The notes below the pieces were generated by a model. That model made no database searches. It was not told the origin of the DNA and was given only the letters and a program-made list of their open reading frames with translations. This document shows, in pieces, positions 1,767 to 57,626 of a DNA stretch of 64,000 nt (positions are counted from its first letter, which is position 1; every line of letters begins with the position of its first letter). Origin of the DNA: Candidatus Omnitrophota bacterium (GTDB lineage: Bacteria; Omnitrophota; Gorgyraeia; Zapsychrales; Zapsychraceae); NCBI GenBank assembly GCA_028280285.1, contig JANQMA010000011.1, positions 58,520 to 122,519 of the forward strand, given 5' to 3'. The position numbers and the translations under genes were made by a program.

Positions 1767-1767
1767 T

Positions 1768-3570: not shown

Positions 3571-3579
3571 AATAGTATC

Positions 3580-4704: not shown

Positions 4705-4779
4705 GATTAAGTGTTTCTGAAATGTGTATGGTGCACTTTATTATGAAATACATGGAGAAGAAGAACGCTTCAGATGTGT

Positions 4780-6732
4780 TTAGTTAGGACTAACGGTCTC
4801 TGAAACAACCTCTCTTACAGGAATATTGTCTTCGATACTCTTCTTGGCCGCAGTACGCATTTTCAATCTTTTATTTCCATAGCTACTGCGTAGTTTAGCG
4901 TCAATGAGTTTTTGAAATTGAAAGGTCGCGTTAATTTTCTTATTGATATGCTTCCATCCAATGATCCTATGGAAAATGTTACGTAATTTCAATTTCCAGC
5001 CGGCCAATCCAGTTTGACGGAAGACCTCCAGCTGCTCCAAACTTTCAATATTGTCTTTGATCGACGTTAAAATAAACGTCTCTTCAAAATTATCACCATA
5101 CGGTAAAAGCTCAACGAGCGGCGGAAAAACATACTGCTGTTCAAGCGGTGTAAAATCACCGGTCTCTATCGCGTGCATCTTTAATTCTATCTCTTCTGTC
5201 CGGTCTTCCGGTTTAATTAATCCATACTCAATCTTAGCATTGTCGTATTCCTTGCTGACAAAGTAATATTCAAATAACAGTTTGTGCTTGTTAGGAAGTT
5301 CCTCGACGTTAAACAGATTATCTAATTTAAACTTTTTGGCAAGTTGACAAAACTCCTCGAAACGTTCCATACGTTTCAAATATGTGCTATTCCCGTCTAA
5401 ACTCTCCCAAAACAAATGCCCCTTGGCTAAATCAATACCATGTTTTTCCGGATCAGCATGTCCCGCCGATCCCGGATAATACTCACAAAAATTAAGTGAA
5501 GGATTAACCATGCTAAACGACTTTTTATTTTCAACGAGAAATTTAATCAAATATTGAAAATCATCCTCCGTCTCCGTTGGAAGACCAAACATAATGTTAA
5601 CGCTCACATAAAGCCCGGCCTTTTTCCCTTCACGCAACACAGCTCCGATGTCCACATCCTTACACAGGTTCTTGCCAACCTCGGCTAATAGACGCAGCGA
5701 AGGCGTTTCCATCCCATATCCAAGAAGTGTGCAGCCCGCTTTTTTAAGCTTTTTATAAAGCGGTGTGCGCATCTCTTTACGGATAACGGCATTTTCTAAA
5801 TTCCATTCAATCTCTTTATTCAAGCCTGATTCAATCATCATATCGCAAAATTTCTCCAACTCACCGATTTTTGAGTTCGAGATATTATCACACATGCGTA
5901 AATAATTTAAGTTCGGATATTTGGCCTTTTGATATTTCACCTCTTCGAACAACCGCTCAGCTGAACGCACGCGGAATGTTTTCATAAAACCGATCGCGCT
6001 GCAGTAGTTGCATTTATTCACACACCCGCGCGTCGTATAGGTTGGCAGCGCATTAGGCTGATCATAATAACTGAATTCAAAATCATCAAAATCAGGAAAA
6101 GGCAGTGAGTCTAGCTTCTTAATAAATTCCGCGTGAGGTCCCCGGATAACCTTTCCGTTATGTTTATAAACAAACCCCGGAACGGCTTGACCTTCCTGAC
6201 CATTTAAGACCATTTTCATAAACCCGAGAAGCGCATTCTCTCCTTCATCCTGGCTGACCGCGTCAATATAATCACGGGAAAGTAAGCTGTCAGTATTTTT
6301 CATAAAACTGGCAACATCAGGCCCGCCCAGCATATGAATATAACCAGGAAAGATATTACGTAAATCTTCTAAAAATATTTCTGCTAAAATACGGGAAGAA
6401 CATTGGCAAGAACAGGCCACAACCAACGGGTTTAAATCACGAATGCGCTGCATAAACTCAAGGAAAATCGCGCGGTTATTTTTGTAGTACTCATACATTG
6501 CTTCCTGATCCATGCAATAGTTGTACCCCTGCGCCATATCCCAATAAAATCTATATTTCTTGCCACCCAAATTATACGCGTGCGCGTTAATATCTAAGAT
6601 CTTACACTTGATATCGTTTTCCGCTAAAAAACTTTTTAGCAAAGCCGGCCCTAACGGCGGGCACCCTACGCCCCAAAAAGGCATTTGGATCAAAACAATA
6701 TCTGCTTCACGTGTTTCAGTTGATCTTTTCAT
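4780..6732 (-). CDS. Cobalamin(B12)-binding radical SAM enzyme
   Basis: 650 aa. N-terminal B12-binding Rossmann-like region (ADIVLIQMPFWGVGCPPLGPALLKSFL), canonical CxxxCxxC (TRGCVNKCNYC) and a long C-terminal extension. Confidence 0.75.
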   Translation of the reverse strand: MKRSTETREADIVLIQMPFWGVGCPPLGPALLKSFLAENDIKCKILDINAHAYNLGGKKYRFYWDMAQGYNYCMDQEAMYEYYKNNRAIFLEFMQRIRDLNPLVVACSCQCSSRILAEIFLEDLRNIFPGYIHMLGGPDVASFMKNTDSLLSRDYIDAVSQDEGENALLGFMKMVLNGQEGQAVPGFVYKHNGKVIRGPHAEFIKKLDSLPFPDFDDFEFSYYDQPNALPTYTTRGCVNKCNYCSAIGFMKTFRVRSAERLFEEVKYQKAKYPNLNYLRMCDNISNSKIGELEKFCDMMIESGLNKEIEWNLENAVIRKEMRTPLYKKLKKAGCTLLGYGMETPSLRLLAEVGKNLCKDVDIGAVLREGKKAGLYVSVNIMFGLPTETEDDFQYLIKFLVENKKSFSMVNPSLNFCEYYPGSAGHADPEKHGIDLAKGHLFWESLDGNSTYLKRMERFEEFCQLAKKFKLDNLFNVEELPNKHKLLFEYYFVSKEYDNAKIEYGLIKPEDRTEEIELKMHAIETGDFTPLEQQYVFPPLVELLPYGDNFEETFILTSIKDNIESLEQLEVFRQTGLAGWKLKLRNIFHRIIGWKHINKKINATFQFQKLIDAKLRSSYGNKRLKMRTAAKKSIEDNIPVREVVSETVSPN

Positions 6733-6861: not shown

Positions 6862-7893
6862 TTAATGCATTTCTACCTTCCCACTGGTGGTATGGATAGG
6901 CACATGTTTCATCCATTCCAGGGCCTCCCACCACTGCGGATTATCCTGGTACCATTGGATTGTTTTCGTAAGTCCTTCTTCCACAGTGGTTTTCGCTTCC
7001 CAGCCCAGCAAATCCTTCGCCTTTTGGGTGGTTGCCTTATGCAGGGCCACCTGCCCCGGGCGATTGCCGATATAATCAATCAGATCCTCGGGTTTGCCCA
7101 ACTGTTTGAGAATAATCTTAGCCATATCCAATACACTGACGGCTTCACCGGTCCCGATATTGATAATCTCATTTTTAATCGCATCAAAATCCTTGATATG
7201 GAGCGCCGCATCAATCGCCTGGCAATGATCTTCGACATAAATCCAGTCGCGCTTGGCTCCGCCATCGCCATGAACAGTCAACTTTTCATCTTTGAGTGCG
7301 CTTGTAATAAAACGCGGTGTCATTTTTTCTAAATGCTGGCGGGCTCCGTAATTATTAAACGGACGCAAAATAACCGCCGGCAGATCATGACAAGACCAAT
7401 AAGAGTAAACCAAACGATCGGCTCCGGCTTTAGCACCGGCATAAGGGGACAGTGGATTTAAAATATCTTCCTCACTGATAATCTCCCCTGCCGCCGTTCC
7501 ATATACCTCAGATGTTGAAATATGAATGAAGCGTTCGATATGATCATATTTAAGCAGCGCATTCATCATTGTTTGCGTGCCGATCACGTCCGTATCAAAA
7601 AACTTGGTATTATCAAAAATCGAACGCGCCACGTGTGTTTCAGCGGCCAGATGCACAACATGCGTTGCCTTGGCCATCAGTTCATTGACAATATACGGAT
7701 TGGTGACATCCCCGTACCAAAACTCAAAACGCCCTGAATCCCGGATTTCTTTGGAAATGTTTTTTTCATTACCCGCGTAGGTTAACGAATCCAAAACAAT
7801 GAAATGGTATTTCTTATATTTTGTAAATAAATAATCCAATAAATTACTGCCGATAAAACCAGCCGCGCCCGTTAATAAAATCGTTTTTTTCAT
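6862..7893 (-). CDS. rfbB: dTDP-glucose 4,6-dehydratase-like NAD-dependent sugar dehydratase
   Basis: 343 aa. GAAGFIGSN, HLAAETHVARS and HISTSEVYG motifs as in RmlB/RfbB. Confidence 0.7.
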   Translation of the reverse strand: MKKTILLTGAAGFIGSNLLDYLFTKYKKYHFIVLDSLTYAGNEKNISKEIRDSGRFEFWYGDVTNPYIVNELMAKATHVVHLAAETHVARSIFDNTKFFDTDVIGTQTMMNALLKYDHIERFIHISTSEVYGTAAGEIISEEDILNPLSPYAGAKAGADRLVYSYWSCHDLPAVILRPFNNYGARQHLEKMTPRFITSALKDEKLTVHGDGGAKRDWIYVEDHCQAIDAALHIKDFDAIKNEIINIGTGEAVSVLDMAKIILKQLGKPEDLIDYIGNRPGQVALHKATTQKAKDLLGWEAKTTVEEGLTKTIQWYQDNPQWWEALEWMKHVPIHTTSGKVEMH

Positions 7894-7912
7894 TTGTTTT
7901 ACCTTTTTTCAA

Positions 7913-8845
7913 TCAAGTTAGAACAGCGTTTGTATTAACAATACTACTTAGTTTAAGAAATTTATCGCTTGCGTATGCATAAGCCACCTGCAATACGCGC
8001 AAGACACCATCACTTGTTGCGACATCACCATAATCATCATTTAATTCAATAATCATCCCCGGAGATTCATTACTTGTATAACCGGCTATCTCCGCCTGCC
8101 AAATAATAATTTTCTCGTCATTATAAAAAAAGAATGCCCCGGGATAAGGAAATGACAAAGCTCTAATCAAATTCCAATTCGCTTTGGCCGGCTCATTAAA
8201 ATTAAGCCGCCCATCTTCAGGCCGCCGGCGTTTTAAATAAGTTGCCTGAGTATGATCTTGTTTGATGCGCTTGTTGGTTCCATTAATAATGGCCTCTAAA
8301 TTATTTAAAATAATTTTCGGATATAGAGGTGTAATTTTTTCATTCAACGTTGTTGCGGTTTCATCGGGGGCGATATCAATGCTCATCTGATCGACGATAT
8401 CTCCTGCGTCAACGGCTTCATTGATATAGAACAATGTCACACCGGAGGTTTTTTCTTCATTAATAATCGCCCAATTCGTTGGAGCAAATCCGCGGTTTTT
8501 TGGCAGTAAAGAATCGTGCAAGACAAAAATCCCCTGCGCCGGAATTGCAAAACAATCGTTATTAATCAGATAACGCCAACCGACAACAAAGACAATATCA
8601 ACATCACATCGTTGTAAATAGTCACTGTAATCTTCGGGTTTAATTCTGTCCGAGGTTTCGCACAGAATATTGTTTTGTTCACACAAAGCTATAATATCTT
8701 CTGTTTTATTATTCAATTCGTGCGCCTCTTGTTTAAGAACAAACGCATGTGTGACAGCACAACCATCGTCAAGCAGTGCTTTTAAAACGACCAGCCCGCG
8801 TTCCCCGGCAAGAAACAATCCGATGTTTGACTGTTTATCACTCAC
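7913..8845 (-). CDS. Sugar N-formyltransferase (Fmt/ArnA-N-like formyltransferase family)
   Basis: 310 aa. Formyltransferase core HDSLLPKNRGFAPTNWAIIN and the folate-binding region. GTG start overlapping the upstream stop (GTGA). Confidence 0.7.
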   Translation of the reverse strand: MSDKQSNIGLFLAGERGLVVLKALLDDGCAVTHAFVLKQEAHELNNKTEDIIALCEQNNILCETSDRIKPEDYSDYLQRCDVDIVFVVGWRYLINNDCFAIPAQGIFVLHDSLLPKNRGFAPTNWAIINEEKTSGVTLFYINEAVDAGDIVDQMSIDIAPDETATTLNEKITPLYPKIILNNLEAIINGTNKRIKQDHTQATYLKRRRPEDGRLNFNEPAKANWNLIRALSFPYPGAFFFYNDEKIIIWQAEIAGYTSNESPGMIIELNDDYGDVATSDGVLRVLQVAYAYASDKFLKLSSIVNTNAVLT

Positions 8846-10128
8846 ACCATTAATTCCTTAAATAAATTTTTGTAATTTTCCGCATACTTTTCGGGCAGTA
8901 TTTTTTCCCGTGCCGCTTTAATATCAGTTTTGGCAACATCTTCTTCAAATTCAAACAAAGTCTGGTATAAGCCACGGCTGAAATCTTCCTCATCATAACA
9001 ATCAACAAGATAACCTGTTTGGGGTGATGTAATAAAATCCGGGGCTACGCCTCTGTTAAACGCGATCACACGGCTGCCGCACATAATCGCTTCATTGATC
9101 ACCATCGGTCCACAGTCATCTATAGAAGGACAGGCAAATATGTCACACGCCTGATAGGCCTTGACAATTTTACGGTTATCATCCAATAATCCTAAATTAA
9201 TCCACGGGCAACCGATTTGATCAGCGGCGAAACCATTGGCATTGCCAAACGTCACCAAGGCAAAGTTGTCTTTCTCCTCTGCAGAAAGTCTTTGCATAAG
9301 CAGTTTAAGCGCACCGAGAAGATGCTTGCCCCCTTTGCGTGGATCGTTTAGATTAAAACATCCATATAAAATAATTTTTTTATTGAGCGGAAGCCCTAAA
9401 TCTTCACGCGCTTGCGTTTTATCACCCATCATAAATTCTTTATCATTAATACCGATTAATATCTTCTCTATACGACGATTACGCGATAATAAACTTTTAT
9501 GACACTGCTCATGCGACCATGATGTGGGCGCGACAAAGGTGAGCGGGATATCAGCAAACATGCTCCGTTTTTCCTCCCAATGCTTCGCAATCACATCATT
9601 TCTTAATTGAACTCCGAGCTGTGGACACTCTTCACACTTTTCTTTAAACTTTTCACAGCCAGCATTAAAATGGCAACCACCCGTGAGTGGCTCAATATCC
9701 ATCGTTGTCCACACCATTGGTGTTTTAAAAACATCGTAGATCCGCCGGATAAGTCTTGCCGAAAGAAAATCCTGAACCGAATGCAAACAAATAATATCCG
9801 CGCCTTTTAGATAAGATCGCAACCGGTTAAAAGACACAGCCGGCAGATTAAAATTAATTAAAGTTTTAGGCTCGCATTTAAGCGTGTAATACTTGCGCCG
9901 CAACCTGTGGATCACCAGGTTGATATAATGCCAATGATATTTAAAGACATTTAAAACAGATTTAACCGGATGGCCTTTAACAAGCTCAACCACCTTCTCT
10001 ACTTTAGATTTTTTTCTATAAACAAGCATTTGGGAATCGCAACCGCAGGCATTAAGCGCCTGGTGAAGTGTCAAAACAGCACGGCCGGCCCCATCAAAAT
10101 CATTGTTTGTTAAATGGATTATTCGCAT
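8842..10128 (-). CDS. Glycosyltransferase family 1 (GT4-like, GT-B fold)
   Basis: 428 aa. N-terminal MRIIHLTNNDFDGAGRAV and a C-terminal nucleotide-sugar-binding half typical of GT1/GT4 retaining transferases. Confidence 0.7.
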   Translation of the reverse strand: MRIIHLTNNDFDGAGRAVLTLHQALNACGCDSQMLVYRKKSKVEKVVELVKGHPVKSVLNVFKYHWHYINLVIHRLRRKYYTLKCEPKTLINFNLPAVSFNRLRSYLKGADIICLHSVQDFLSARLIRRIYDVFKTPMVWTTMDIEPLTGGCHFNAGCEKFKEKCEECPQLGVQLRNDVIAKHWEEKRSMFADIPLTFVAPTSWSHEQCHKSLLSRNRRIEKILIGINDKEFMMGDKTQAREDLGLPLNKKIILYGCFNLNDPRKGGKHLLGALKLLMQRLSAEEKDNFALVTFGNANGFAADQIGCPWINLGLLDDNRKIVKAYQACDIFACPSIDDCGPMVINEAIMCGSRVIAFNRGVAPDFITSPQTGYLVDCYDEEDFSRGLYQTLFEFEEDVAKTDIKAAREKILPEKYAENYKNLFKELMV

Positions 10129-39697: not shown

Positions 39698-39820
39698 AAT
39701 AATTATTAAGCCACCAAGATTATACATCAATCCTCACAGATTGAAATATGAATTCTTTGATTTAATTGTGGGCAAATCGCCAAATATTCCTATAATAGAC
39801 TATGAAAGTTGGGAAAAATC

Positions 39821-40690
39821 ATGGGCAACATACGCGATATATTCAAAACTAAGGACAAAACCTTTTCTATCGAACTGTTTCCGCCCAAGACGGAAAAAGG
39901 CTACAGCAATTTGATGGGAACCATCGCCAAAATGGCTGCCCTTAAGCCGGACTTTATTTCATGCACCTATGGCGCCGGTGGCAGCAGCCGCGGCAAAACA
40001 CTTGATATTGTTGAACATATTGAAAAAGAGCACAATATAGCCGCCATGCATCATTTGACGTGCGTTATGCACAGCAAAGATGAAATGGAATCTATACTTT
40101 CTGATATTAAATCCCGTGGTGTTGACAATATATTGGCCCTGCGCGGAGATCCTCCGCAGGATAATCCTGATTGGATGCCGGGAGAAAATAACTTTAAGTA
40201 TAGCTCCGAATTAATCGCATTTATCCGGGAAAAATTCGGTGATGATTTTACGATCGGTGTGGCAGGCTTTCCGGAAGGCCATATTCTTTGCCCGGACCTT
40301 AATCAGGATGCTCAATATTTAAAAGGAAAAGTCCAAAGCGGCGCTGATTTTGTAATCACTCAGCTCTTTTTTGATAACCGTGATTACTTTGAGTATATGG
40401 GAAGGCTTAAAAATATTGATGTGACTGTACGCATTATTCCGGGCATTTTGCCGATAACGGATTATCAGGCCTTGCTCCGGTTCACAAAACTGTGTGGCGC
40501 AAGTGTACCAGATAAAGTGCATAAAATCTTTGAGCCTATTCAAGACGATAAAGAAGCAACACTTAAAGCCGGCATCGCATTCTGTATCGAGCAATGCGAG
40601 CGGCTGCTTGCCGCAGGCGCCCCGGGCATCCACTTCTACGCGCTTAACAAAATCCATCCGGTCGATGAAATATTATCAGCGATTTGTTAA
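39821..40690 (+). CDS. metF: 5,10-methylenetetrahydrofolate reductase
   Basis: MetF signature region SIELFPPKT...ISCTYGAGGSSR and ~290 aa length. ATG at 39821 is preferred over TTG at 39809. TATAAT at ~39791. Confidence 0.85.
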   Translation: MGNIRDIFKTKDKTFSIELFPPKTEKGYSNLMGTIAKMAALKPDFISCTYGAGGSSRGKTLDIVEHIEKEHNIAAMHHLTCVMHSKDEMESILSDIKSRGVDNILALRGDPPQDNPDWMPGENNFKYSSELIAFIREKFGDDFTIGVAGFPEGHILCPDLNQDAQYLKGKVQSGADFVITQLFFDNRDYFEYMGRLKNIDVTVRIIPGILPITDYQALLRFTKLCGASVPDKVHKIFEPIQDDKEATLKAGIAFCIEQCERLLAAGAPGIHFYALNKIHPVDEILSAIC

Positions 40691-40756: not shown

Positions 40757-40794
40757 GCACCGGGTGCGGGCGCACCCGGTGCGCGGAGAGGTTT
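40757..40794 (+). terminator. GC-rich hairpin + T-run (intrinsic terminator between convergent metF and 40794..42083)
   Basis: gcaccgggtgc-gggc-gcacccggtgc (11-bp stem) followed by gcggagaggtttta. Confidence 0.5.
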
Positions 40795-42083
40795 TATTCC
40801 CAAGAAAATCCGATACCATGAATTTCAATGTCTGCTGTACCTGGTGCCGTAACTTTATAAACCAGATCATTAGTACTTGTAGAGGTTAAAGAAACATCTG
40901 CCTCAATAATACGGATGTTCCCCTGATACTCACCAACATCTGTTATTGTGCTGGCTGCATCAAATGTGCCTGTACTACCATTACGTGCCACCGAAACGGT
41001 AAGATCGTTTGTTAAATCATCACCGACAGCTAACAGCATAACTTTCGCACTTGTCGGGGTTGACTCAGCCTCAAACGTCTCAGATACTAATGTAAATGTT
41101 TGCCCTGACTGCGAAGCTAAATAGGATGATGTTTTCTCAGGAGCTTGTGCTGGTGCTGTTGGCACTGTGAATGATGGTGGTGTCGTTGTATCCGGTATAA
41201 TCCCGAATACATTCGGACTACTTACACGAAATTCATCAATATTGCCTTTCATATAAACAGTATCAACAATTTGACCAATAAAAATCGGTGAATCCTCAAC
41301 AAGTGTTGTGGTTACGGTGCTTGATACATGAGCCTTCTGACTCCCATCAAGATAAATACCAAACTCGGTACCTTCTTTAATAAATGCCACATGATACCAG
41401 TCATCATCTTCAATACTATTACCATTGGCATAACCAGTGTTAAGATTGATAATATTTGAACCATCCTTTAGAAAAAATTGTAACATTGATCCCTGCACAG
41501 GATCATAACTCGCCATGTAATATCTAATCAGATTATTAGATGGGGCCCAACCAGAAAAAAAGTACTGATTATCATACTGACCATCTAACTTAACCCAAAA
41601 ATCAATCGATAATGAGGATGTTGTACTGCTAAATGATAAAAAATCTTTTTCATCATTCAAAATAGCTGCATGATCACCGGATCCATCAACATATAAAGAC
41701 GCACCCCCAAAATAACCTTCCGATGTATCAATTGTTGCATCATATTTAAGCTCAATAATCTGACAATTTTGAGAAACATCAGATGTTAAATCACTTGTAT
41801 ATCCAGGCAAAGACTTTGATTCATCAAAATGAACAAGTGCTATAATATCGTCGTTATCATCTGATATAAAATCTACATAACTAGTATTGCTGTAATTAAT
41901 TCCACATTTATCAACAAACGCATCTATAAACCCATCTTGCATTTTACTTACTGATCTATTACTATTCTCAAGTATACGGTACCCGTTAAGAAACTCATTA
42001 ATAGACATTTCCGTTGCTTGCGCCTGCAAGGCACAAAACATTACACCAAAAAACATCAAACAGAAAATAATTCGTTTTTTCAT
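40794..42083 (-). CDS. Secreted LamG/concanavalin-A-like lectin domain protein
   Basis: 429 aa. Signal peptide MKKRIIFCLMFFGVMFCALQAQA. Central region matches the Laminin_G_3-type pattern (SIDFWVKLDG...YHVAFIKEGTEFGIYLDG). Confidence 0.5.
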   Translation of the reverse strand: MKKRIIFCLMFFGVMFCALQAQATEMSINEFLNGYRILENSNRSVSKMQDGFIDAFVDKCGINYSNTSYVDFISDDNDDIIALVHFDESKSLPGYTSDLTSDVSQNCQIIELKYDATIDTSEGYFGGASLYVDGSGDHAAILNDEKDFLSFSSTTSSLSIDFWVKLDGQYDNQYFFSGWAPSNNLIRYYMASYDPVQGSMLQFFLKDGSNIINLNTGYANGNSIEDDDWYHVAFIKEGTEFGIYLDGSQKAHVSSTVTTTLVEDSPIFIGQIVDTVYMKGNIDEFRVSSPNVFGIIPDTTTPPSFTVPTAPAQAPEKTSSYLASQSGQTFTLVSETFEAESTPTSAKVMLLAVGDDLTNDLTVSVARNGSTGTFDAASTITDVGEYQGNIRIIEADVSLTSTSTNDLVYKVTAPGTADIEIHGIGFSWE

Positions 42084-42372: not shown

Positions 42373-42960
42373 TTACGACGCGTGGCCTTCGATTTCAATC
42401 ACGAGCGTGACTTCATCGTCGACAACTAGCCCGCCCCCATCAAGGGTCTTATTCCAGGAAATACCGAAATCCTGACGGTTGATCGTGACCCGTCCTTTAA
42501 GCCCGATAGCCGTCCCTCCGAATGGATTATTGACCGGCCCGGCAATCTCAACGGGAATATAAATCCTCTTCTCAACGCCTTTCATGTTGAGAATCCCAGC
42601 AATTTGATAACCATCATCGTTTTTGACAAGCGCTTCGCCTTTAAACGTAATGATCGGATACTTTTCAACATCAAAAAAATCAGCGCCGACCAGATGATTG
42701 TCACGCCCTTCGTGATTGGTATCAATAGATTTGGCTTGAATAGTAACCGCCGCACTAAAACCGGAAAGATTATCTTTATCCAAGGTAAACGATCCTTTGT
42801 AGTCATCAAATTGACCCCTGACCGTTGAGATGCCTAAATGCTTAACCTCAAACCCAAGTGTCGTATGCGAATTATCAATATTGTAGTCGACTGCATGAGC
42901 AGAAAGAGCGACCCCTGAGATCAATGTTAATGTTACACCTATAATCAAAATCTTCTTCAT
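42373..42960 (-). CDS. YceI-family periplasmic protein
   Basis: In-frame ATG gives MKKILIIGVTLTLISGVALSAHA, a signal peptide, then the YceI-like core (YNIDNSHTTLGFEVKHLGISTVRGQF). Two nt from the MarR gene stop. Confidence 0.75.
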   Translation of the reverse strand: MKKILIIGVTLTLISGVALSAHAVDYNIDNSHTTLGFEVKHLGISTVRGQFDDYKGSFTLDKDNLSGFSAAVTIQAKSIDTNHEGRDNHLVGADFFDVEKYPIITFKGEALVKNDDGYQIAGILNMKGVEKRIYIPVEIAGPVNNPFGGTAIGLKGRVTINRQDFGISWNKTLDGGGLVVDDEVTLVIEIEGHAS

Positions 42961-42962
42961 TA

Positions 42963-43439
42963 TTAGACCCCTTCTGTTTTTTGAATTGTATCCATCACTT
43001 CGGATAATTCCTGGCAAAGCGCGTCAATACGCTCCTGGCCAACAGATTGATTAAGTTGTTGTTGAAATGCTTTAAATAGCGCAGACGCCTGATTTGATTT
43101 TTTAAGTCCCTGCTCGGTAATAACAACCTTTTTAACACGCTTATCTTCTCCGGGTTTAAGATCAATCAGCCCATCTCTCTCCAGAATTTTTAAATTGCGT
43201 GTTAAGGTGGTTCTATCGGTGGCAATAGCCTCGGCCAGTTCATTCACTGTCAGCGGGCCCAACTCTCTAATCGATGCCAGCAGAGTCCCTTGGGGGGCAG
43301 TGATCCCAACCGGCTTAAACATACGTTCATATATGGCTGTAATTACCTTAGAAGCCCGGCGCACATTAAAACAAATACATGGACTTTCTTTGGCAAATTT
43401 TTGAACTTCGTCTTTTTTGTTTGCATCAAGTGTACACAT
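42963..43439 (-). CDS. MarR-family transcriptional regulator
   Basis: 158 aa. Winged HTH LLASIRELGPLTVNELAEAIATDRTTLTRNLKILERDGLI. Confidence 0.8.
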   Translation of the reverse strand: MCTLDANKKDEVQKFAKESPCICFNVRRASKVITAIYERMFKPVGITAPQGTLLASIRELGPLTVNELAEAIATDRTTLTRNLKILERDGLIDLKPGEDKRVKKVVITEQGLKKSNQASALFKAFQQQLNQSVGQERIDALCQELSEVMDTIQKTEGV

Positions 43440-43511
43440 AACTTATCCCAGTGGATAGGAGTATATACACATATTTGATGCTTGTCAATGAAAAAGCCCC
43501 GGCCGCCCTAC

Positions 43512-43946
43512 TTAATAACTTCCTTTATGCTCATGGTCAGATCCGTGGTGATCATGATCTGAGCCTTTCATACTACCTTTACCTTCCTTCATCTTTTTCT
43601 TATATTCTTTTTTTAGTTCTATAGCCTTGGCTTCAAAATCTTCTAAATATTTAGCTGGGTCTTCCAAGAACGTGTCCAACTGCTCTTGACCAACAAAATA
43701 GTAGGTTTTGCCTTCATACTCAGCCTTAAAAGCATCTGTCCCTTTCATAAACTTACCCTTAAAAACACACACAGGGCACAGACCACCCATTTCCGCTCCT
43801 TCAGCCATTTCCTTAGCCATGCTGCCTTTATCGCTGTCTCCCTTCATGTAACCACTTCCCTTTTTCTCATAACCGGATGCGGCAGCACTGTGCGTAAAAG
43901 CAACAACAAATGCTAATACTAAAAATCCTAACAATGTTTTTTTCAT
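43512..43946 (-). CDS. Periplasmic YHS-domain metal-binding protein with His-rich C-terminus
   Basis: Signal peptide. CPVCVFKGKFMKGTD...EYEGKTYYFVGQE matches the YHS-domain pattern. C-terminal GSDHDHHGSDHEHKG. Confidence 0.6.
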   Translation of the reverse strand: MKKTLLGFLVLAFVVAFTHSAAASGYEKKGSGYMKGDSDKGSMAKEMAEGAEMGGLCPVCVFKGKFMKGTDAFKAEYEGKTYYFVGQEQLDTFLEDPAKYLEDFEAKAIELKKEYKKKMKEGKGSMKGSDHDHHGSDHEHKGSY

Positions 43947-43977
43947 AATCTCCTCACTTTACTTTTGGTTAAACGAT

Positions 43978-44472
43978 TTAAAATACCTCTTCGAGATTCC
44001 CAGGAAGCTCATGTTCAACAGCTTTGACGATCCCTTGACTATCGACAAAGAAAAATGTCGGCACGCCGATGAGCTCATATGGTTCTTCGAGCGTTGCTCC
44101 CTGATCAACAATCATATCCAACTCAATCTTATTACGTTTGGCATACTTAGCGACCGTTGCAATATCTTCCCCATAATCAACAATGACCAACTTAATCCCT
44201 TGTTGTAATATATTTTCACTTTTCGCACTTAACTCTTTAAGTTGTGTGCGACAATGCGGGCACCATGTGGCCCAGAAAAATATAATCGCTTTATCATCAC
44301 CTCTGTATTCGGTTAAATTGATTTCTTTGCCATTGGTCGCCGGGAGTGTAAAGTCGGGGGCAGGCTTTCCGATATTGCTGTTTTCCATATAAAAAAGCTG
44401 CGCCGAGGCCGACGCAGCTAGCATGGGGGGCATAAAAACTAATGCCATACAAATAACTAGAAATTTTCTCAT
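43978..44472 (-). CDS. TlpA/ResA-like periplasmic thiol:disulfide oxidoreductase (thioredoxin fold)
   Basis: Signal peptide, WATWCPHCR active site, 164 aa. Confidence 0.75.
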   Translation of the reverse strand: MRKFLVICMALVFMPPMLAASASAQLFYMENSNIGKPAPDFTLPATNGKEINLTEYRGDDKAIIFFWATWCPHCRTQLKELSAKSENILQQGIKLVIVDYGEDIATVAKYAKRNKIELDMIVDQGATLEEPYELIGVPTFFFVDSQGIVKAVEHELPGNLEEVF

Positions 44473-44565
44473 GTATCCTATCCTTTATGAAATTCTTAAA
44501 ATTAATCCAAGACAACATGCTATCACCTAACGTTTACAATTGCCACGGGTATCTTATCTTTACAA

Positions 44566-45339
44566 TCAACTCATTAATTCGATAAGCTCGCTTTCCGGCA
44601 TATCGGTCACAATCACACACCCGACACCGGAATGCCTCTTATCAAGGCACAAAAGACTGGAATAGCCTTGCTCATTGCGAACATACATCTCTTTATCACC
44701 TTTACTTACATCTTTACCTTTAGTAAATTTCATATCCGTCGAGTCAATCATATAAAGTGACATGCGGTGTCCGTCTTTTTCGTAAAATAAAAGCGCAACC
44801 GGCTTTTCTTTTAAATGGCAAAGCCTCGCCCCGATCAGTTTGGCTCCTTTAACAGAAAGGTCCGGCGGACGCACTGGAAAAGATAGGCGGCCTTCAAACC
44901 ATTTGGTCACTTCCTCTAAATTATCAGTCTGTACTTCGGAAGAATACCGGCCACCCAAGCAATCAATATGACGTTCGATAGAGGCCTTAAATATAGGAAA
45001 GGCATTGGTGCTGCTTGTTAAAACAACAACAGCAAACACCGCAATCAAACCAACTGTGGCAAACCGGCCAAGCAAAGGGAAATCAAAGTCAAACCGCGGT
45101 ATCCAGGACAGCCAGCTTTTTTTTGCGAGACTCGCGACAACCTGCTCGCGCAATTCATACGGTGCTTCTTCTTGAACCATATGTTTGGCAACCAGCCCGT
45201 CAAACCGCTTTTCTTTTTCGTATTCCAGACGGGCCAGGGGATCCTCTGTCATCTTGGCCTTCATCTGAATGGCAAGGGTTTGGTCTAATTCATTGTGAAT
45301 ATAGGCCTGTAAATTTTCTCTAAACTGTTTTTCGTCCAT
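44566..45339 (-). CDS. Membrane-spanning anti-sigma factor (putative)
   Basis: 257 aa. Immediately downstream of the ECF sigma gene. Cytoplasmic N-terminal domain, a single TM helix (ATVGLIAVFAVVVLTSS) and a periplasmic C-terminal domain. Confidence 0.45.
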   Translation of the reverse strand: MDEKQFRENLQAYIHNELDQTLAIQMKAKMTEDPLARLEYEKEKRFDGLVAKHMVQEEAPYELREQVVASLAKKSWLSWIPRFDFDFPLLGRFATVGLIAVFAVVVLTSSTNAFPIFKASIERHIDCLGGRYSSEVQTDNLEEVTKWFEGRLSFPVRPPDLSVKGAKLIGARLCHLKEKPVALLFYEKDGHRMSLYMIDSTDMKFTKGKDVSKGDKEMYVRNEQGYSSLLCLDKRHSGVGCVIVTDMPESELIELMS

Positions 45340-45353
45340 AATACACCTTCAAT

Positions 45354-45908
45354 TTAAATTTCTGCCTGCACTTTTGGGTCCAACATTTTTTTAAGCGCAT
45401 TTTTAGCTGTGTGTAGCCTCGACATAACTGTTCCGATCGGCGTTTTCATAATCTTGGCAATCTCTTTATAGGCAAAACCTTCGACATAATAAAGCGTCAA
45501 AACCGTCCGTAATTCCTCGGGCAATTTATCAATCGCTACTTGCAGCGACTCACCAAATATCTCCTCCTGGGCCCCACTGAGCTCGGTTGTCCCGATCATC
45601 CCCTGATATTCATCAAAATCGATTTTGACCGGCTCTTTGGCTTTTTTGCGGTAATCATTGATGAACAAATTACGCAAAATCGTCAAAATCCAGCCTTTAA
45701 AATTCGTCCCTTCCTCAAATTTATGGTAAAAGCGGAAGGCCCTGAGCGATGCCTCCTGAACCAAGTCAGAGGCATTGGCATGATTGAGCGTCAACCTATA
45801 GGCGAGGTTATACATGGAATCCATAGCCTTAAGCAAATTCTCTTCAAAGTCTCTTGTAGACGTATTTTTTTGGGCTGCACTTAACATATCAAATCCTACC
45901 GGCTTCAT
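45354..45908 (-). CDS. ECF-type RNA polymerase sigma-70 factor
   Basis: 184 aa. Region 2 (LVQEASLRAFRFYHKFEEGTNFKGWILTILRNLFINDYRK) and region 4 HTH (YKEIAKIMKTPIGTVMSRLHTAKNAL). Confidence 0.85.
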   Translation of the reverse strand: MKPVGFDMLSAAQKNTSTRDFEENLLKAMDSMYNLAYRLTLNHANASDLVQEASLRAFRFYHKFEEGTNFKGWILTILRNLFINDYRKKAKEPVKIDFDEYQGMIGTTELSGAQEEIFGESLQVAIDKLPEELRTVLTLYYVEGFAYKEIAKIMKTPIGTVMSRLHTAKNALKKMLDPKVQAEI

Positions 45909-45956
45909 CTCTATAACAGCAGAAATAGTGGATTTATTCGAAAAAAGTGAGTTGGA

Positions 45957-47312
45957 TTAATAGAGAACGTCAAATTCCGGGCGGAATTCCTTGGGGTCTT
46001 TTTCATAGACAAATTGGCTGGTGGCCTCATCAAAGTCCTGTATCTTGGGAACGACCAGGTCGTCACTAATGCAGGTGTCGCTATTTTCGGCATAATACTG
46101 TATTTCTTCAGAAAAACTGTTCAGAATACTTTGCGACACGATAGAGGCTTGTTGGGGGAGAAAACAACGTGTTTGCTGGGTACACCGCCCACTGATATCA
46201 CGAATCATATCAATATCATTCTGCGAGCCCTTCCCGTTTCTCAGATTCTCAAAATGCTCCATAATATTGCGTGTGCCCGAATTGCAAGGAATACATTGCC
46301 CGCAGCTTGAGACAGCTAAAAATTTGGTCATCATCCATGCGATCTCGCACATGGAACGGTCTGCGTCATAGACAATAAATCCGGCGGAACCCAAACCAAT
46401 CCCTGCATTGCGCAATGTCCCGAAATCAATTTTCAGATCAAAATGCTCAGGCAGCATCATACGATTAGACATACCTGATAAAATGGCCTTAAATTCCTTA
46501 TCGCCGCGCGGGCCGCCGCCGATATCGTATAATAATTGTCTTACAGTTAACCCCGTCTCCACCTCATACATCCCGGGGTTTTTCACATCACCCGATAAAG
46601 TAAAAATAACAGTGCCGGGGGTGTCTTCGGTCCCCATTGAGGTAAACCATTCGGCACCATTTTGAATAATTTTAGGAACATGACTTAAGGTTTCACAATT
46701 ATTAACAACCGTTGGATTAGTTTCCGTGGCATTCACGCCAACACCGACCATAAACGGCGGGAAAAAACGTGGCATGGGCTGACGACCATCAATGGATTCT
46801 AATAAACCCTTTTCTTCACCTAATAAATAATCGTCCGGACCAAGATGTATTTGAAGAAAACCTTTTTCGACAACACCCTGCTGCTCAAATTCACGCAGCG
46901 CTTGCTCAAGACGGGCTACCGTTGATTTAAATTTATCTTTTGTTCCAAGAATCGCCTGCTTGGCGCCAATGGCATAAGCCCCGATCAACATCCCTTCAAA
47001 AACAAGATAAGGATTTTTACCGATTAAATAACGGTCTTTATAGGTGCCCGGCTCGCCCTCCGCCATATTACACACAAGATATTTCTTTTCATCTGGAGTA
47101 GCGCGGACCCCGGCCCATTTGATCGCCGCCGGAAAACCAGCTCCGCCGCGACCACGTAGGTTTGCCGCTTTAATCTCGGCAATCACATCATTAGGATCCA
47201 TGGCGCGTGCTTTTTTAAGCGCTTCAAGACCGCCCTGGGCTATGTATTCTTTAATATTCTTAAGTGGCTTTAAATCTTCCGGCAGTAAATTCCGTTTTTC
47301 GAGAGGATGCAT
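45957..47312 (-). CDS. NuoF-like (respiratory complex I 51-kDa family) NAD(H)-binding FMN/Fe-S flavoprotein, stand-alone
   Basis: GRGGAGFPAAIKW FMN/NADH motif and C-terminal CGQCIPC 4Fe-4S motif. ATG at 47312 is preferred; the ORF-track TTG start is at 47324. Confidence 0.75.
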   Translation of the reverse strand: MHPLEKRNLLPEDLKPLKNIKEYIAQGGLEALKKARAMDPNDVIAEIKAANLRGRGGAGFPAAIKWAGVRATPDEKKYLVCNMAEGEPGTYKDRYLIGKNPYLVFEGMLIGAYAIGAKQAILGTKDKFKSTVARLEQALREFEQQGVVEKGFLQIHLGPDDYLLGEEKGLLESIDGRQPMPRFFPPFMVGVGVNATETNPTVVNNCETLSHVPKIIQNGAEWFTSMGTEDTPGTVIFTLSGDVKNPGMYEVETGLTVRQLLYDIGGGPRGDKEFKAILSGMSNRMMLPEHFDLKIDFGTLRNAGIGLGSAGFIVYDADRSMCEIAWMMTKFLAVSSCGQCIPCNSGTRNIMEHFENLRNGKGSQNDIDMIRDISGRCTQQTRCFLPQQASIVSQSILNSFSEEIQYYAENSDTCISDDLVVPKIQDFDEATSQFVYEKDPKEFRPEFDVLY

Positions 47313-47338
47313 ATCTTGCTCCAAAATAATTTAAAAAT

Positions 47339-47411
47339 CGTACTTCGTACTTAGAACTTCGTACCTCGTGGATTACGATGTACTAAGTACGATGTGCGAA
47401 GTACGACTGTA
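47339..47411. repeat. Palindromic repeat family R3 (GTACTTAG / CTAAGTAC modules), copy 1
   Basis: cgtacttcgtacttagaacttcgtacc ... gatgtactaagtacgatgtgcgaagtacg, imperfect inverted repeats. Related copy at ~59582-59655. Confidence 0.5.
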
Positions 47412-47465
47412 TTAATTTAATTATATAATACTCACTTTTCGACCTATGACAAATGATATTTAATA

Positions 47466-47531
47466 AATTGGTGACAGGCACTTATTTTCAAAAAACAAAT
47501 TGGTGATGAAAATAAGTGCCTGTCACCAATT
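47466..47531 (+). promoter_or_regulatory. Perfect 23-bp inverted repeat (20-nt spacer) in the 5' leader of the ZIP transporter gene
   Basis: aattggtgacaggcacttatttt ... aaaataagtgcctgtcaccaatt, followed by tttta ~20 nt before the ATG at 47553. A TATAAT sits ~40 nt upstream of it at ~47424. Confidence 0.5.
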
Positions 47532-47552
47532 TTATGTTATGATGATTGCATT

Positions 47553-48329
47553 ATGGGCACAATGACTCTCATTTACTGGGCACTTGTGACCGGTGTTTTA
47601 AGCGCGCTGGCAACCGGCCTCGGAGCAATCCCTGTTAAATTCTTGAAGGAAGACTCACACAAGGTCCGCGGCATGGCTTCGGCGATTGCCGCCGGGATGA
47701 TGATTTCCGCGTCCGTCTTTTCGCTCGCCCAAGAAGGCATTGCCCTAGAAGCCAAAATCCCCTTTTCTCCTTATATTGTCATTATCGGTTTATTGTTGGG
47801 GGCTGCTTTTTTTCATTGGTCAGAACGGTTTTTGGATGAACCTGATATTACAAAGTTTTATACAAAACAAGGGTTTAGCCGTAAAGGATTTCTGATTTTC
47901 ATTGCGATGTTTATTCATTCCATCCCCGAAGGGATTGCCATCGGTGTGGCCTTTGCCACCGATAATCTCACCTTTGGTTTGACCATGGCAATCGCGATTG
48001 CTGTGCACAATATCCCGGAAGGGATCGCCATTTCTCTACCTCTTAAGGCCGAAGGGATCAGCACACCCAAATGTGCCTGGATTTCCATTCTCACAAGTGT
48101 TCCACAACCGGTCATGGCTGTGCCCGCGGCTGTGCTCGCCTGGTTTTTTGAGCCACTTCTACCGATCGGCTTAGGCTTTGCCGGCGGAGCCATGATTTAT
48201 CTGACTATTTCTGAGTTAATTCCTGATGCGTTTGAAGAGGGTGGCCACCAGTTAACTGCCTGGGGCGTTATGATTGGTTTGTGCGGGATGCTTCTTATTA
48301 CAACACTGCTTAATTTGATTCCTTATTAA
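47553..48329 (+). CDS. zupT: ZIP-family divalent metal transporter (ZupT-like)
   Basis: 258 aa, 8 TM helices. HSIPEGIAIG and HNIPEGIAIS metal-binding motifs. Confidence 0.8.
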   Translation: MGTMTLIYWALVTGVLSALATGLGAIPVKFLKEDSHKVRGMASAIAAGMMISASVFSLAQEGIALEAKIPFSPYIVIIGLLLGAAFFHWSERFLDEPDITKFYTKQGFSRKGFLIFIAMFIHSIPEGIAIGVAFATDNLTFGLTMAIAIAVHNIPEGIAISLPLKAEGISTPKCAWISILTSVPQPVMAVPAAVLAWFFEPLLPIGLGFAGGAMIYLTISELIPDAFEEGGHQLTAWGVMIGLCGMLLITTLLNLIPY

Positions 48330-48360
48330 AAAAGGGCGGCCACAAGGGCCGCCCCTACGA

Positions 48361-48855
48361 TCACTCCACCGACACAACTGTCACATCAAAGTTCAACACC
48401 TTACCGGCCAGTGGATGATTAAAACTGACAACAACTGTTGTTTCTTTCACTTCCGTCACAACAGCTGGAACAGGCTTTCCTTCAGGATCATTAAACTGCA
48501 AAATCATTCCAACAGACACTTGAAAATCTTCAGGGAATTGCTCCATAGGAAGTTCCGTAAAGGCATCGGGATTAACTGCACCATAGGCGTCTTCTGGTTG
48601 AAGGGTGACCTTCTTTGAATCGCCTGGTTCTAGACCCAACAAGGCATTTTCAAGCCCGGGGATGATTTGACCTGATCCGTGCACATATTCCAAAGGTGTT
48701 TTACCCGATGTTGTGTCAAGCACCTCGCCTTCGACTGTTAAGACATAATCAAACTTAACTGTTTTTCCTTCCTCAATCTTTGCTGCCAACGCCGACGAAC
48801 TTAACGCAAAAATTAAACCGGCACTCACTGCAACACCCTTAAGAATAGATTTCAT
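48361..48855 (-). CDS. Periplasmic FKBP-type peptidyl-prolyl cis-trans isomerase
   Basis: Signal peptide, then FKBP fold pattern (VKFDYVLTVEGEVLDTT...IIPGLENALLGLEPGD). Confidence 0.75.
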   Translation of the reverse strand: MKSILKGVAVSAGLIFALSSSALAAKIEEGKTVKFDYVLTVEGEVLDTTSGKTPLEYVHGSGQIIPGLENALLGLEPGDSKKVTLQPEDAYGAVNPDAFTELPMEQFPEDFQVSVGMILQFNDPEGKPVPAVVTEVKETTVVVSFNHPLAGKVLNFDVTVVSVE

Positions 48856-48924
48856 AACAATCCCCTTTACGGATAGTAGATTAATGTATAGCTCACCATA
48901 CGCGGTTGTTGGAAGTTTGTCAAA

Positions 48925-49941
48925 TTAAAACGCCTTCTGCCAACCAATGGTTGTAGTCAAGTCCGTCATCAACTGCGGGCCCTCCGCGTGAATATACGCA
49001 GGAAAACCGATTTCTAAAGCCAGACGGTGATCCTTAAAGATTCCTGAGGGAATCACGATATTAGTTCCAAACAAAAGATCCAAACGCTCATGTGCATAAT
49101 TATTAGGATCTGCGGTTGGAACCATACTAGCATTTAATTGATGATCACGTCCACGGATATGTCCGCGCTTGGTCGCGTTAACACGGAAAGACGTGCTGAA
49201 CCAATCAAGCCACTCATAGGCAATCCATGTCGTTAACCGGTACTCATTACCCAGCGTATACTTGTGTTCATTACGCCCATTACGTACAACGGAGCTGACT
49301 TGCGTGCCCCAGTTCCATTTGTCGTGTGTATCACTATAGGTAAGCCCCGGAAGCAGATCAAATGTGCCTGAACCAAGCTGCATCGGATATGGCAATTTTC
49401 GATCAGGCCCCATTAATGTCGCATCACGTTCACCAATCGAACCAGTCGGCATGCTTACTCCGAAATTAAACTGAACCTTTTTATTTAAGTATCTTTCCAA
49501 AGAAAACATCCCAGTTAATTTAAGGTCCCCAATGCCTTCGGTCCTTGTAGTGAAGGTTTTGCCATCTGTCCGGCGGACATGCGACATGGATTTAAAATGA
49601 TAAGGAAGCATAGCCATTAACGTCACCTCATCAGTGAGACCATACATCATTCCAACCATGTGCATATGCATATTCATCTTCGTTGGAGCAATCATAAATT
49701 CGTTATGCACTGACTCCTTTGATATATTTTTTGAGCCGGCATAAAGTTCGTCCATATCCATATACATATGTCGGTAAGAGACCATCCACTCCCCTTGTTT
49801 ATGCATATGATCGGCCATCACACCGATCGGCGCATGACCGGTAGGCGAAGCATGACCTTCATGTCCTGCATGAACTGCACCGGCACTAGCATTAAAAGCC
49901 AAAGTTAATAAAAACAAAAATGTTAAGAATAATTTTTTCAT
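48925..49941 (-). CDS. Outer-membrane beta-barrel protein with His/Met-rich N-terminal region (CopB-like?)
   Basis: In-frame ATG gives MKKLFLTFLFLLTLAFNASAGA, a signal peptide. Followed by HAGHEGHASPTGHAPIGVMADHMHKQ and alternating amphipathic strands. C-terminal ...GWQKAF ends in Phe. The ORF-track N-terminal extension to 50079 is probably spurious. Confidence 0.5.
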   Translation of the reverse strand: MKKLFLTFLFLLTLAFNASAGAVHAGHEGHASPTGHAPIGVMADHMHKQGEWMVSYRHMYMDMDELYAGSKNISKESVHNEFMIAPTKMNMHMHMVGMMYGLTDEVTLMAMLPYHFKSMSHVRRTDGKTFTTRTEGIGDLKLTGMFSLERYLNKKVQFNFGVSMPTGSIGERDATLMGPDRKLPYPMQLGSGTFDLLPGLTYSDTHDKWNWGTQVSSVVRNGRNEHKYTLGNEYRLTTWIAYEWLDWFSTSFRVNATKRGHIRGRDHQLNASMVPTADPNNYAHERLDLLFGTNIVIPSGIFKDHRLALEIGFPAYIHAEGPQLMTDLTTTIGWQKAF

Positions 49942-50147
49942 AATATTGATAGAACAATGGGTAAAATCATTGTTCAACCTTTCTATATATTGGAAATTGA
50001 AATTACATAAGTATTTCGGTATTCGGTATCGATGCCCGTATCGGTTTTCGGTTGCGTTAAGCGTGTTGTATAACGACAACCGTTAACCGAACATACGAAA
50101 CGGGCTTCGCAACCGTAACCGAAAAACGTTACCGGTTTATGTATTTA

Positions 50148-50510
50148 TTATGAAGTGATAGGAACGTGCTCGATGGAAGGATAACTGCCTTCTTGTTTAA
50201 CAAGAACATGAAACAAAGAAAATAATAAAAACCGATGTGGGTGCGCACTTTGTTGTTTCTGCGCCATAATAAACTGTGGTGAACCGGCCTTATCTGTTTG
50301 CATAGGTGTATGTTGAGGTGCGGTTGCAACAAACGCAATGCCATCAATGGCTTGATGTTTTTTAATAAGCGCCTGCGTACATAGACAAATCGCCCGTCGG
50401 CCACCACACAGATTAGCTTCTTGCGCAACTTTAATGTAAATACCCAGCGGAAAAATCCATAGAAGGAAAGCGGCACACACACAAAGAGTAAGAAATTTAA
50501 AACCTGACAT
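50148..50510 (-). CDS. Hypothetical small membrane/secreted protein (doubtful)
   Basis: 120 aa with an N-terminal hydrophobic segment. An ORF in another frame overlaps it. No recognisable family. Confidence 0.2.
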   Translation of the reverse strand: MSGFKFLTLCVCAAFLLWIFPLGIYIKVAQEANLCGGRRAICLCTQALIKKHQAIDGIAFVATAPQHTPMQTDKAGSPQFIMAQKQQSAHPHRFLLFSLFHVLVKQEGSYPSIEHVPITS

Positions 50511-50555
50511 AAGAGCTTACTTATAACAAAAAGAAGACTTGAGGTAAAGAAAAAT

Positions 50556-57275: not shown

Positions 57276-57626
57276 CTATTGGCGTATAATTGATTCAACA
57301 TTATACCCGCCCCATTCAATCTTCTCTGTGATAAGTGCATCAGACATTTCATGCCCTTTTTTAAGATTAATTAATATTTCTTTCGTCGTTAAATCAATCC
57401 CCATCCCTGATACAGAATCTTCTTTAAAAAACACTTTTTCCAAGGATGTCGCGCAAAATGCACATACCAAACCCTTAGCCTTAACAATAATCACCTTTCC
57501 ATCAGGGTCATATACACCCTGTGTGATAGTAGACTCAACTTGTTGCTTTTCCTCAGCCAAGACAGAGACCACATTTATTGACATAAACATCAATATTGAT
57601 AAGAAAAATATAATAAATTTTTTCAT
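57276..57626 (-). CDS. Secreted heavy-metal-associated (HMA/CopZ-like fold) domain protein
   Basis: Signal peptide. IVKAKGLVCAFCATSLEKVF...ILINLKKGHE...KIEWGGYNV follows the HMA beta-alpha-beta-beta-alpha-beta pattern with a CxxC metal site. Confidence 0.45.
   Translation of the reverse strand: MKKFIIFFLSILMFMSINVVSVLAEEKQQVESTITQGVYDPDGKVIIVKAKGLVCAFCATSLEKVFFKEDSVSGMGIDLTTKEILINLKKGHEMSDALITEKIEWGGYNVESIIRQ

Follow-up and report, generated by a model that had tools for sequence, protein, structure and literature searches.

The window analysed here is a stretch of 64,000 nucleotides (64 kb) from a Candidatus Omnitrophota bacterium, and its feature of interest is a gene on the minus strand (45957-47312) for a flavoprotein of 451 amino acids that resembles NuoF, the subunit of complex I that carries the site for reduced nicotinamide adenine dinucleotide (NADH). 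Its start codon is the ATG at 47312, in agreement with the N-terminus MHPLE of its family. Four genes follow in the same orientation, separated by gaps of 48, 14, 93 and 31 nucleotides (nt). They encode an extracytoplasmic function (ECF) sigma factor of 184 amino acids with the Pfam domains Sigma70_r2 and r4_2 (45354-45908), a single-pass membrane anti-sigma factor (44566-45339), a secreted TlpA/ResA-like thiol-disulfide oxidoreductase, or redoxin (43978-44472), and a secreted YHS-domain protein (43512-43946) recognized by Pfam and NCBIfam, which is a probable metal binder with a His-rich C-terminus. The redoxin has an AhpC-TSA/Redoxin domain, a signal peptide and a WCPHC motif, and matches the ResA model at 2.9e-22. 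A preliminary description of this region had listed the same five co-oriented genes, and all of the open reading frames (ORFs) were found in place and assigned to the families it named. On the plus strand, a gene for a ZIP (ZupT-like) metal transporter (47553-48329; Pfam/NCBIfam) diverges from the NuoF-like gene.

The NuoF-like protein has the Pfam domain order Complex1_51K, SLBB and NADH_4Fe-4S, and neither a signal peptide nor a transmembrane segment. Alignment with canonical NuoF and HydB proteins demonstrated that the loop GRGGAGF for flavin mononucleotide (FMN), the EGEPGT motif, the CGQCxPC motif and the fourth cysteine are kept, and GRGGAGF, CGQCIPC and RCFLP are invariant across the family. 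Judged by these motifs, the protein appears to retain the sites for hydride transfer from NADH to FMN and for one [4Fe-4S] cluster. The domain order, the FMN loop, the GEPGT sequence, the four cluster cysteines and the fold are thus those of NuoF/Nqo1 and of its relatives HydB, NfnB, HoxF and FdsB. In contrast to NuoF/Nqo1, the motif at the NADH site is GPDDYLLGEEKGL in the window protein, with the family consensus GPDEYLFGEEKAL, whereas the canonical form is GAGA(Y/F)xCGEETAL. The form that defines the clade is GPxxYLxGEEK, and the proteins that carry it are referred to below as GP-type. The fourth cysteine lies within RCFLP instead of the LCxLG of canonical proteins, and a C-terminal extension of about 40 residues (410-445), absent from canonical NuoF, is conserved in the family.

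A structure predicted by AlphaFold2 from 60 family members was confident (predicted local distance difference test score of 91.9), the C-terminal extension included, and this extension forms a beta-hairpin at residues 424-436 of the model. A Foldseek search aligned the model to NuoF, HydB and NfnB chains (8e9g_F, 2fug_1 and 9n5u_B) with a template modelling score of 0.85, a root-mean-square deviation of about 2 Å and 32-37% identity; all of these solved relatives are subunits of larger complexes. The protein scored 355 bits against TIGR01959, the NuoF equivalog model, for which the cutoff is 558.65 bits, and it also remained below the cutoffs of NF010120 and NF008436. It falls outside the NuoF equivalog by score, by NADH-site motif and by partner genes.

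The absence of partner genes was examined in two sets of loci. The first comprises 17 related loci of the Omnitrophota-type branch, namely the window and those designated L001, L002, L004, L037-L043, L045 and L121-L125, which a simple identity tree divides into three subclades. The second comprises 80 metagenome loci, obtained from a scan seeded with family-specific stretches of the NuoF-like protein. Relatives proved to be numerous, about 445 amino acids long and 52-82% identical to the window protein, and where they are named they belong mostly to metagenome-assembled genomes of Candidatus Omnitrophica. A single-protein scan of genome contigs recovered only canonical NuoF/HydB genes, at 33-40% identity, and these supplied the NuoE and NuoG queries and the positive controls. 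Profiles for NuoE and NuoG, built from canonical loci, were run against all ORFs of the metagenome loci. NuoE adjoined NuoF at each of the 23 loci with the canonical GAGA-type motif, which served as the positive control, and most of them also had a gene for NuoG or a HydA-like protein. Beside GP-type genes, a NuoE or NuoG neighbour was found at none of 44 loci. Some GP-type contigs are short, which weakens single negatives and leaves the overall pattern intact. Homologues of NuoE and NuoG were likewise absent from the 64-kb window and from the 16 related loci. The preliminary description had remarked on a NuoF homologue without NuoE or NuoG, and this is borne out in all three samples; it had also considered that the two partners might be encoded just beyond this region in relatives, as a sign of simple gene shuffling, and no such arrangement was found. 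Since NuoE accompanies all 23 canonical genes and none of the 44 with the altered motif, the lone state of the NuoF-like gene is a property of its clade. Given this clean split by motif, the GP-type proteins make up a broad clade of stand-alone proteins, which excludes simple gene shuffling as an explanation.

Our literature searches found no published description of such a stand-alone NuoF clade. In a survey of 176 complete Omnitrophota genomes, complex I is fragmentary, with nuoF in 43 genomes, nuoE in 24 and nuoG in none (10.64898/2026.06.07.730766). Clustering of neighbouring genes revealed no partner common to the whole GP-type clade, and outside the Omnitrophota-type branch there was no common neighbour at all. 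Among longer GP-type proteins inspected for Rosetta-stone fusions, one informative case was found: a single ORF in L048 (9038-10972) that places a hemerythrin (HHE) domain N-terminal to the NuoF-like protein. A link of the stand-alone clade to O2, NO or iron is possible from this fusion. Isolated neighbours of other GP-type genes are an OsmC gene downstream in L055 and a cytochrome b/c fusion upstream in L052.

We then considered whether the NuoF-like gene is linked to the ECF pair, because the preliminary description had mainly proposed a redox input, in which the flavoprotein senses NADH/NAD+ or redox state and signals to the sigma and anti-sigma factors. The order NuoF-like gene, sigma factor, anti-sigma factor recurs with orthologous genes at three of the 17 loci, which are the window, L124 and, after one extra gene, L002. 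The sigma factor also resembles thiol-stress factors of the sigma-H/sigma-R type, and no intrinsic terminator was found in the 48-nt spacer between the NuoF-like and sigma genes of the window. These points favour the proposal. Against it, conserved synteny, on which the preliminary description would have had the matter checked, was not observed: the pair is missing from 14 of the 17 loci. The NuoF-like proteins of L124 and L002 are 82% and 67% identical to that of the window, and the loci without the pair include L125 (76%), where a terminator lies behind the NuoF-like gene and the next gene is unrelated, and L001 (75%), where a redoxin gene follows directly. In the identity tree the three ECF-bearing loci are not one group. 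The NuoF-like gene has a candidate sigma-70-type promoter, TTGTCA-N16-TATTAT (47425-47452, minus strand), which matches the consensus at 10 of 12 positions; the element TTGT(C/G/T)A-N16/17-TAT(T/G)AT lies upstream of its orthologues in L124, L125, L037 and L122, and a similar one in L121. The sigma gene has a conserved candidate promoter of its own, described below, whose xGAATA-N17-GTT motif precedes the NuoF-like gene in none of the three ECF-bearing loci. Thus, of the features named beforehand as arguing against a functional coupling, a separate candidate promoter and non-conserved synteny were found, and a separate terminator was not. Finally, the conserved Cys/His domain of the anti-sigma factor is predicted to be periplasmic, whereas the flavoprotein would be cytoplasmic, and its clade is found in dozens of contexts without any sigma factor. 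Because synteny is rare, the promoters are separate and the two proteins would face different compartments, an input role is disfavoured. The idea is largely refuted by synteny, and we consider it most improbable. The coupling of NuoF-like and ECF genes is a lineage-specific juxtaposition of two separable units.

The ECF unit itself is an ordinary stress module, consisting of the sigma factor, a membrane-anchored anti-sigma factor with a decayed zinc-binding anti-sigma (ZAS) motif, the redoxin and the YHS-domain protein. The sigma factor contains regions 2 and 4 only, and its best NCBIfam model is SigH_actino (147 bits, below the cutoff). Orthologues are present in L124 (75% identity) and L002 (55%). 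The anti-sigma factor has no Pfam match, and its assignment rests on its position 14 nt downstream of the sigma gene, a weakly RsrA-like N-terminus (E = 1.5e-4), one transmembrane segment and the L002 orthologue, which has a full HxxxCxxC motif and a weak zf-HC2 match. This ZAS motif is intact in L002 (10519-11304), retains one Cys in L124 (2954-3727) and has no Cys at these positions in the window. In the periplasmic domain, H124, D126, C127, C174, H175 and C231 are invariant. The stepwise decay of the motif, together with the invariant periplasmic Cys and His residues, suggests that the periplasmic domain has taken over the sensing.

The candidate promoter of the sigma gene is cGAATAAA-N14-TGTTAT (45914-45939, minus strand). 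An element of the form (C/T)GAATAAA-N14-TGTTA(C/T) is present upstream of the sigma gene in the same register in the window, L124 and L002, and the strict motif GAATAA-N15-TGTTA occurs once in each, just upstream of this gene and with identical spacing. Read as xGAATA-N17-GTT, the candidate fits by motif match the reported sigma-H consensus GGAAT-N18-19-GTT and the trxB1-type sequence GGAATA-N17-GTT (PMC10012870). Another candidate ECF promoter, GGAAT-N17-CGTT, was seen at 45990, inside the NuoF-like ORF near its 3' end; as L124 does not share it, it was rejected in favour of the intergenic motif. The best model, the promoter motif, the thiol-redox gene in the operon and the HxxxCxxC kept in L002 all resemble the SigR-RsrA and SigH-RshA systems of Actinobacteria. 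The window unit differs from these in that its anti-sigma factor is membrane-anchored, with a periplasmic Cys/His domain and the zinc motif lost, its scores lie below the equivalog cutoff, and it belongs to another phylum. A homologue of the YHS-domain protein is present in L002 and absent from L124.

The neighbours that recur most in the Omnitrophota-type branch are thiol-redox genes. CcdA, a TlpA-like redoxin or both are encoded downstream of the NuoF-like gene on the same strand at 11 of the 17 loci, across all three subclades, with gaps of 8-53 nt in L004, L037, L041, L122, L123 and L001. CcdA stands beside the NuoF-like gene in L002, L004, L037, L122 and L123; orthologues of the redoxin follow the NuoF-like gene directly in L001, L041, L042 and L121, and follow CcdA in L004 and L122. 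This pairing is found in five upstream contexts, comprising a divergent ZIP gene, MetH, a btu-like operon, a pst-phoU cluster and another ABC system. In L039, with a pst-phoU cluster farther upstream, a gene for a thioredoxin-coupled ArsC-type low-molecular-weight phosphatase (7577-8014) overlaps the start of the NuoF-like gene (8001-9338) by 14 nt. The divergent arrangement with ZIP is shared by L124, L125, L001 and L045, and occurs with MetH in between in L002 and L004. A YceI-family gene, which lies downstream in the window, is also found downstream in L002, L004, L037, L121 and L122.

The context at the 11 loci with thiol-redox genes fits a second idea of the preliminary description, a diaphorase serving the thioredoxin. 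On the basis of these neighbours, we tentatively favour the reading that the flavoprotein provides electrons from NADH and is co-expressed with the proteins of envelope thiol reduction, and that the ECF unit was inserted later; its chance seems to us appreciable, if somewhat short of even. The first unit would be a stand-alone NuoF-type flavoprotein that has its own sigma-70-type promoter and functions without NuoE or NuoG. It would supply NADH-derived reducing power for envelope thiol-disulfide reduction, or be co-expressed to support it, and electrons could pass from NADH through FMN and the [4Fe-4S] cluster to a cytoplasmic thiol carrier, then to CcdA and the TlpA-like redoxin. The second unit would comprise the sigma-H/sigma-R-type ECF sigma factor and the membrane anti-sigma factor under an autoregulatory-type promoter of their own. 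It would have come into the operon later, between the flavoprotein and redoxin genes, in the lineage of the window, and when the envelope is under thiol or metal stress it probably activates the redoxin and YHS metal-binding protein genes along with its own. What we infer is the electron transfer past the cofactor sites, the signal that induces the ECF unit, and the direction of the evolutionary change, with insertion of that unit preferred to its repeated loss. The nearest published parallel is found in 31 MsrQ-like transmembrane electron-transfer clusters, in which NuoF-like proteins were proposed as the cytosolic NAD(P)H donor (Meheust et al. 2021, 10.1101/2021.01.07.425746). There, too, a partner-less NuoF-like gene (PF10589) accompanies a membrane protein that carries electrons outward; those clusters, however, encode haem-binding MsrQ-like and flavinylated (ApbE) components, whereas CcdA and no ApbE or FMN-binding genes are found here.

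Several observations weigh against envelope thiol reduction as the role of this protein. As in the CcdA-TlpA/ResA pathway, the window encodes a secreted thioredoxin-fold CxxC protein, but no CcdA homologue or other shuttle of the CcdA/DsbD family is encoded in it. We know of no chemistry by which an FMN/[4Fe-4S] protein reduces CcdA or thioredoxin, and the only conserved CxxC in the NuoF-like family is formed by the cluster ligands. An active disulfide of the ferredoxin:thioredoxin reductase kind, formed by the extra Cys in GRCTNQTRC, had been considered and was dropped, since this Cys is missing in L040, L045 and sister clades. None of about 40 more distant GP-type loci showed the CcdA/redoxin link, which is confined to the Omnitrophota-type branch and so cannot be the function at the core of the entire clade. 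The count of 11 may in part reflect inherited gene order rather than selection, and B12/methionine genes are almost as frequent as neighbours. The spacer without a terminator makes read-through co-transcription from the NuoF-like gene into the sigma gene possible, and all of the promoters are predictions from motifs.

The frequency of B12 and methionine genes may point to another role, by analogy with PduS, a stand-alone FMN and [4Fe-4S] enzyme that is an NADH-dependent cob(III)/cob(II)alamin reductase (PMC2982820) and whose SLBB domain was proposed to bind B12 (PMC1796856). The NuoF-like protein would then be a corrinoid reductase that reduces cob(II)alamin, for instance in reactivating MetH or processing imported B12, with the thiol and ECF genes as mere neighbours. 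PduS is of similar size and also combines a Rossmannoid FMN domain with SLBB, and MetH or a cobalamin riboswitch with a TonB/BtuB-type receptor lies within about 5 kb at nine of the 17 loci, though as separate transcription units. MetH is directly upstream on the same strand in L002, L004, L121 and L122 and 4 kb away in L043; in L037 a btuBFDC-like operon under a cobalamin riboswitch (2955-3094) is directly upstream and ends 78 nt before the NuoF-like gene; and a riboswitch with a TonB receptor lies 1-3 kb downstream in L041 (11632-11804), L042 (13285-13480), L043 (12067-12316) and L123 (11675-11980). A convergent gene for methylenetetrahydrofolate reductase (MTHFR) lies 0.1-7 kb downstream at seven loci, namely L001, L002, L041, L042, L121, L122 and the window, where the MetF gene (39809-40690, plus strand) is about 5 kb away. 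These arrangements vary among loci and extend across all three subclades. However, terminator-like hairpins separate MetH from the NuoF-like gene, which has its own candidate promoter, so that the B12 genes would be neighbours and not operon partners. No MetH, cobalamin riboswitch or TonB receptor was found in the window, and the distant GP-type relatives have no B12 context. PduS belongs to the RnfC branch and has two ferredoxin-type [4Fe-4S] clusters, whereas the window protein has only the helical NADH_4Fe-4S domain with one cysteine set and matches RnfC-type models at 2e-15 (56 bits against a cutoff of 246). PduS is further encoded in pdu operons and binds a shell protein, which is not the case here. 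We regard a PduS-like function as rather doubtful, yet as the main rival to the thiol-reduction reading. A link to MTHFR has a precedent in the MetF-MetV-RnfC2 methylene-tetrahydrofolate reductase of Acetobacterium woodii, in which RnfC2, an NADH-oxidizing FMN/Fe-S protein of NuoF/RnfC type, serves MTHFR. In the loci studied here, by comparison, the MTHFR gene is convergent in every case and nowhere co-transcribed with the NuoF-like gene, MetV did not turn up, and the flavoprotein is of NuoF rather than RnfC type.

Two further explanations do without a particular partner or place it elsewhere in the genome. The protein could be a generic NADH diaphorase or oxidative-stress reductase that feeds ferredoxin, rubredoxin, quinones, metals or peroxidases. 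The broad clade has no conserved neighbour, scattered stress-type partners are encountered (hemerythrin in L048, OsmC in L055, cytochrome b/c in L052, ArsC in L039), and the gene stands by itself in L038 and L040 and forms a monocistronic unit in L125, closed by a terminator of its own. Such a role would leave unexplained both the tight, recurrent CcdA/redoxin operon of the Omnitrophota branch and the recurrent B12 context; being also vague and hard to test, it seems unlikely to us. Less likely still is an ordinary NuoF/HydB-type subunit whose NuoE/NuoG-like partners are encoded elsewhere, whether because an operon was split or because the gene is what is left of a complex I, hydrogenase or formate dehydrogenase. 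The solved structural relatives, all from multi-subunit complexes, would suit such a subunit, the NuoE/NuoG search of this genome covered 64 kb, and nuoE is present in the 24 genomes of the survey cited above. The split by motif, in which GAGA-type genes always have NuoE and GP-type genes never do, stands against it, as do the score below the NuoF equivalog cutoff, the confidently modelled C-terminal extension absent from canonical NuoF, and the lack of nuoG from all 176 genomes.

Two inverted repeats surround the start of the NuoF-like gene. In its leader, between the predicted promoter and the start codon, there is an imperfect hairpin with GTAC-rich repeats and 32-nt arms followed by U5 (47338-47406, minus strand), with a folding free energy of -30 kcal/mol and z = -5.85. 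It looks like a transcription attenuator by its sequence and is lineage-specific, as L124 and L125 lack it. In the divergent ZIP/NuoF-like promoter region there is a perfect inverted repeat (47465-47532; arms of 26 nt, loop of 16 nt), which is unique in the window and has a free energy of about -40.6 kcal/mol and z = -11; 20 nt separate its end from the start codon of ZIP. The equivalent intergenic region of L124 and L125 does not contain this repeat, which could be an operator, a leader hairpin hiding the ZIP ribosome-binding site, or a small mobile repeat. An Rfam search with the NuoF-like leader, this palindrome and the region upstream of the barrel gene discussed below yielded nothing at gathering score, and only generic hairpin matches below threshold.

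Next to the ZIP gene, which the preliminary description had listed together with a periplasmic FKBP, Pfam and NCBIfam identified an FKBP with a signal peptide (48361-48855), so that both calls stand. In L001, a block of FKBP, ZIP and NuoF-like genes lies just downstream of an rRNA operon (1-5565) that contains the end of the 16S gene, two tRNAs, and the 23S and 5S genes. The adjacent gene, likely 48925-49941 after trimming to a start at MKKLF, had been described as encoding a His/Met-rich outer-membrane barrel. The protein does have a signal peptide, is rich in His and Met towards its N-terminus and ends in Phe; the barrel label was drawn by eye from features resembling those of outer-membrane proteins, and no match was found in Pfam, NCBIfam or the Protein Data Bank (PDB). 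About 470 nt upstream of this gene (~50000-50555) are probably non-coding and contain inverted repeats of the CGGTTA/TAACCG type; the ORFs listed at 50129-50510 look spurious, and no Rfam match was obtained for this region even at E <= 1. A secreted HMA-like protein farther on (57276-57626), also noted before, matches the HMA domains of CopA in the PDB (E = 2e-7), though it has no Pfam match.

Downstream of the YHS gene on the minus strand lie genes for a MarR/OhrR-like regulator (42963-43439; Pfam/NCBIfam) and a YceI-family periplasmic protein (42373-43017; Pfam), the true start of which is probably the ATG near 42960. The regulator has a strong candidate promoter of the sigma-70 type (43460-43488, minus strand) that agrees with the consensus at 11 of 12 positions and is kept in L124. 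Between the YceI and MTHFR genes, a secreted protein of 429 amino acids with a Laminin_G_3 (concanavalin-like) domain is encoded at 40794-42083, and a Laminin_G_3-domain protein occupies the equivalent position in L122.

The ECF part is instructive mainly in that it cautions against reading much into adjacency, which in a single genome is weak evidence. The feature worth following is the stand-alone NuoF clade itself. The NADH-oxidizing module of complex I is normally studied only within large complexes, and if a large clade of such proteins works alone, it would offer a simple and tractable NADH/FMN/[4Fe-4S] enzyme. As a broader conjecture, to which we give only a modest chance, the GPxxYLxGEEK clade may be a widespread, unrecognized class of self-sufficient NuoF proteins that in Omnitrophota provides the NADH entry either for trans-membrane thiol reduction by way of CcdA, in place of the route through NADPH and thioredoxin reductase, or, where the flavodoxin system is lacking, for reductive reactivation of the methionine synthase that depends on B12. 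Either role, if true, would be a new physiological role for the NADH module of complex I. Stand-alone function would further account for the orphan nuoF calls, because of which complex I appears fragmentary in surveys of Omnitrophota genomes, and such calls should then not be taken for remnants of respiration.

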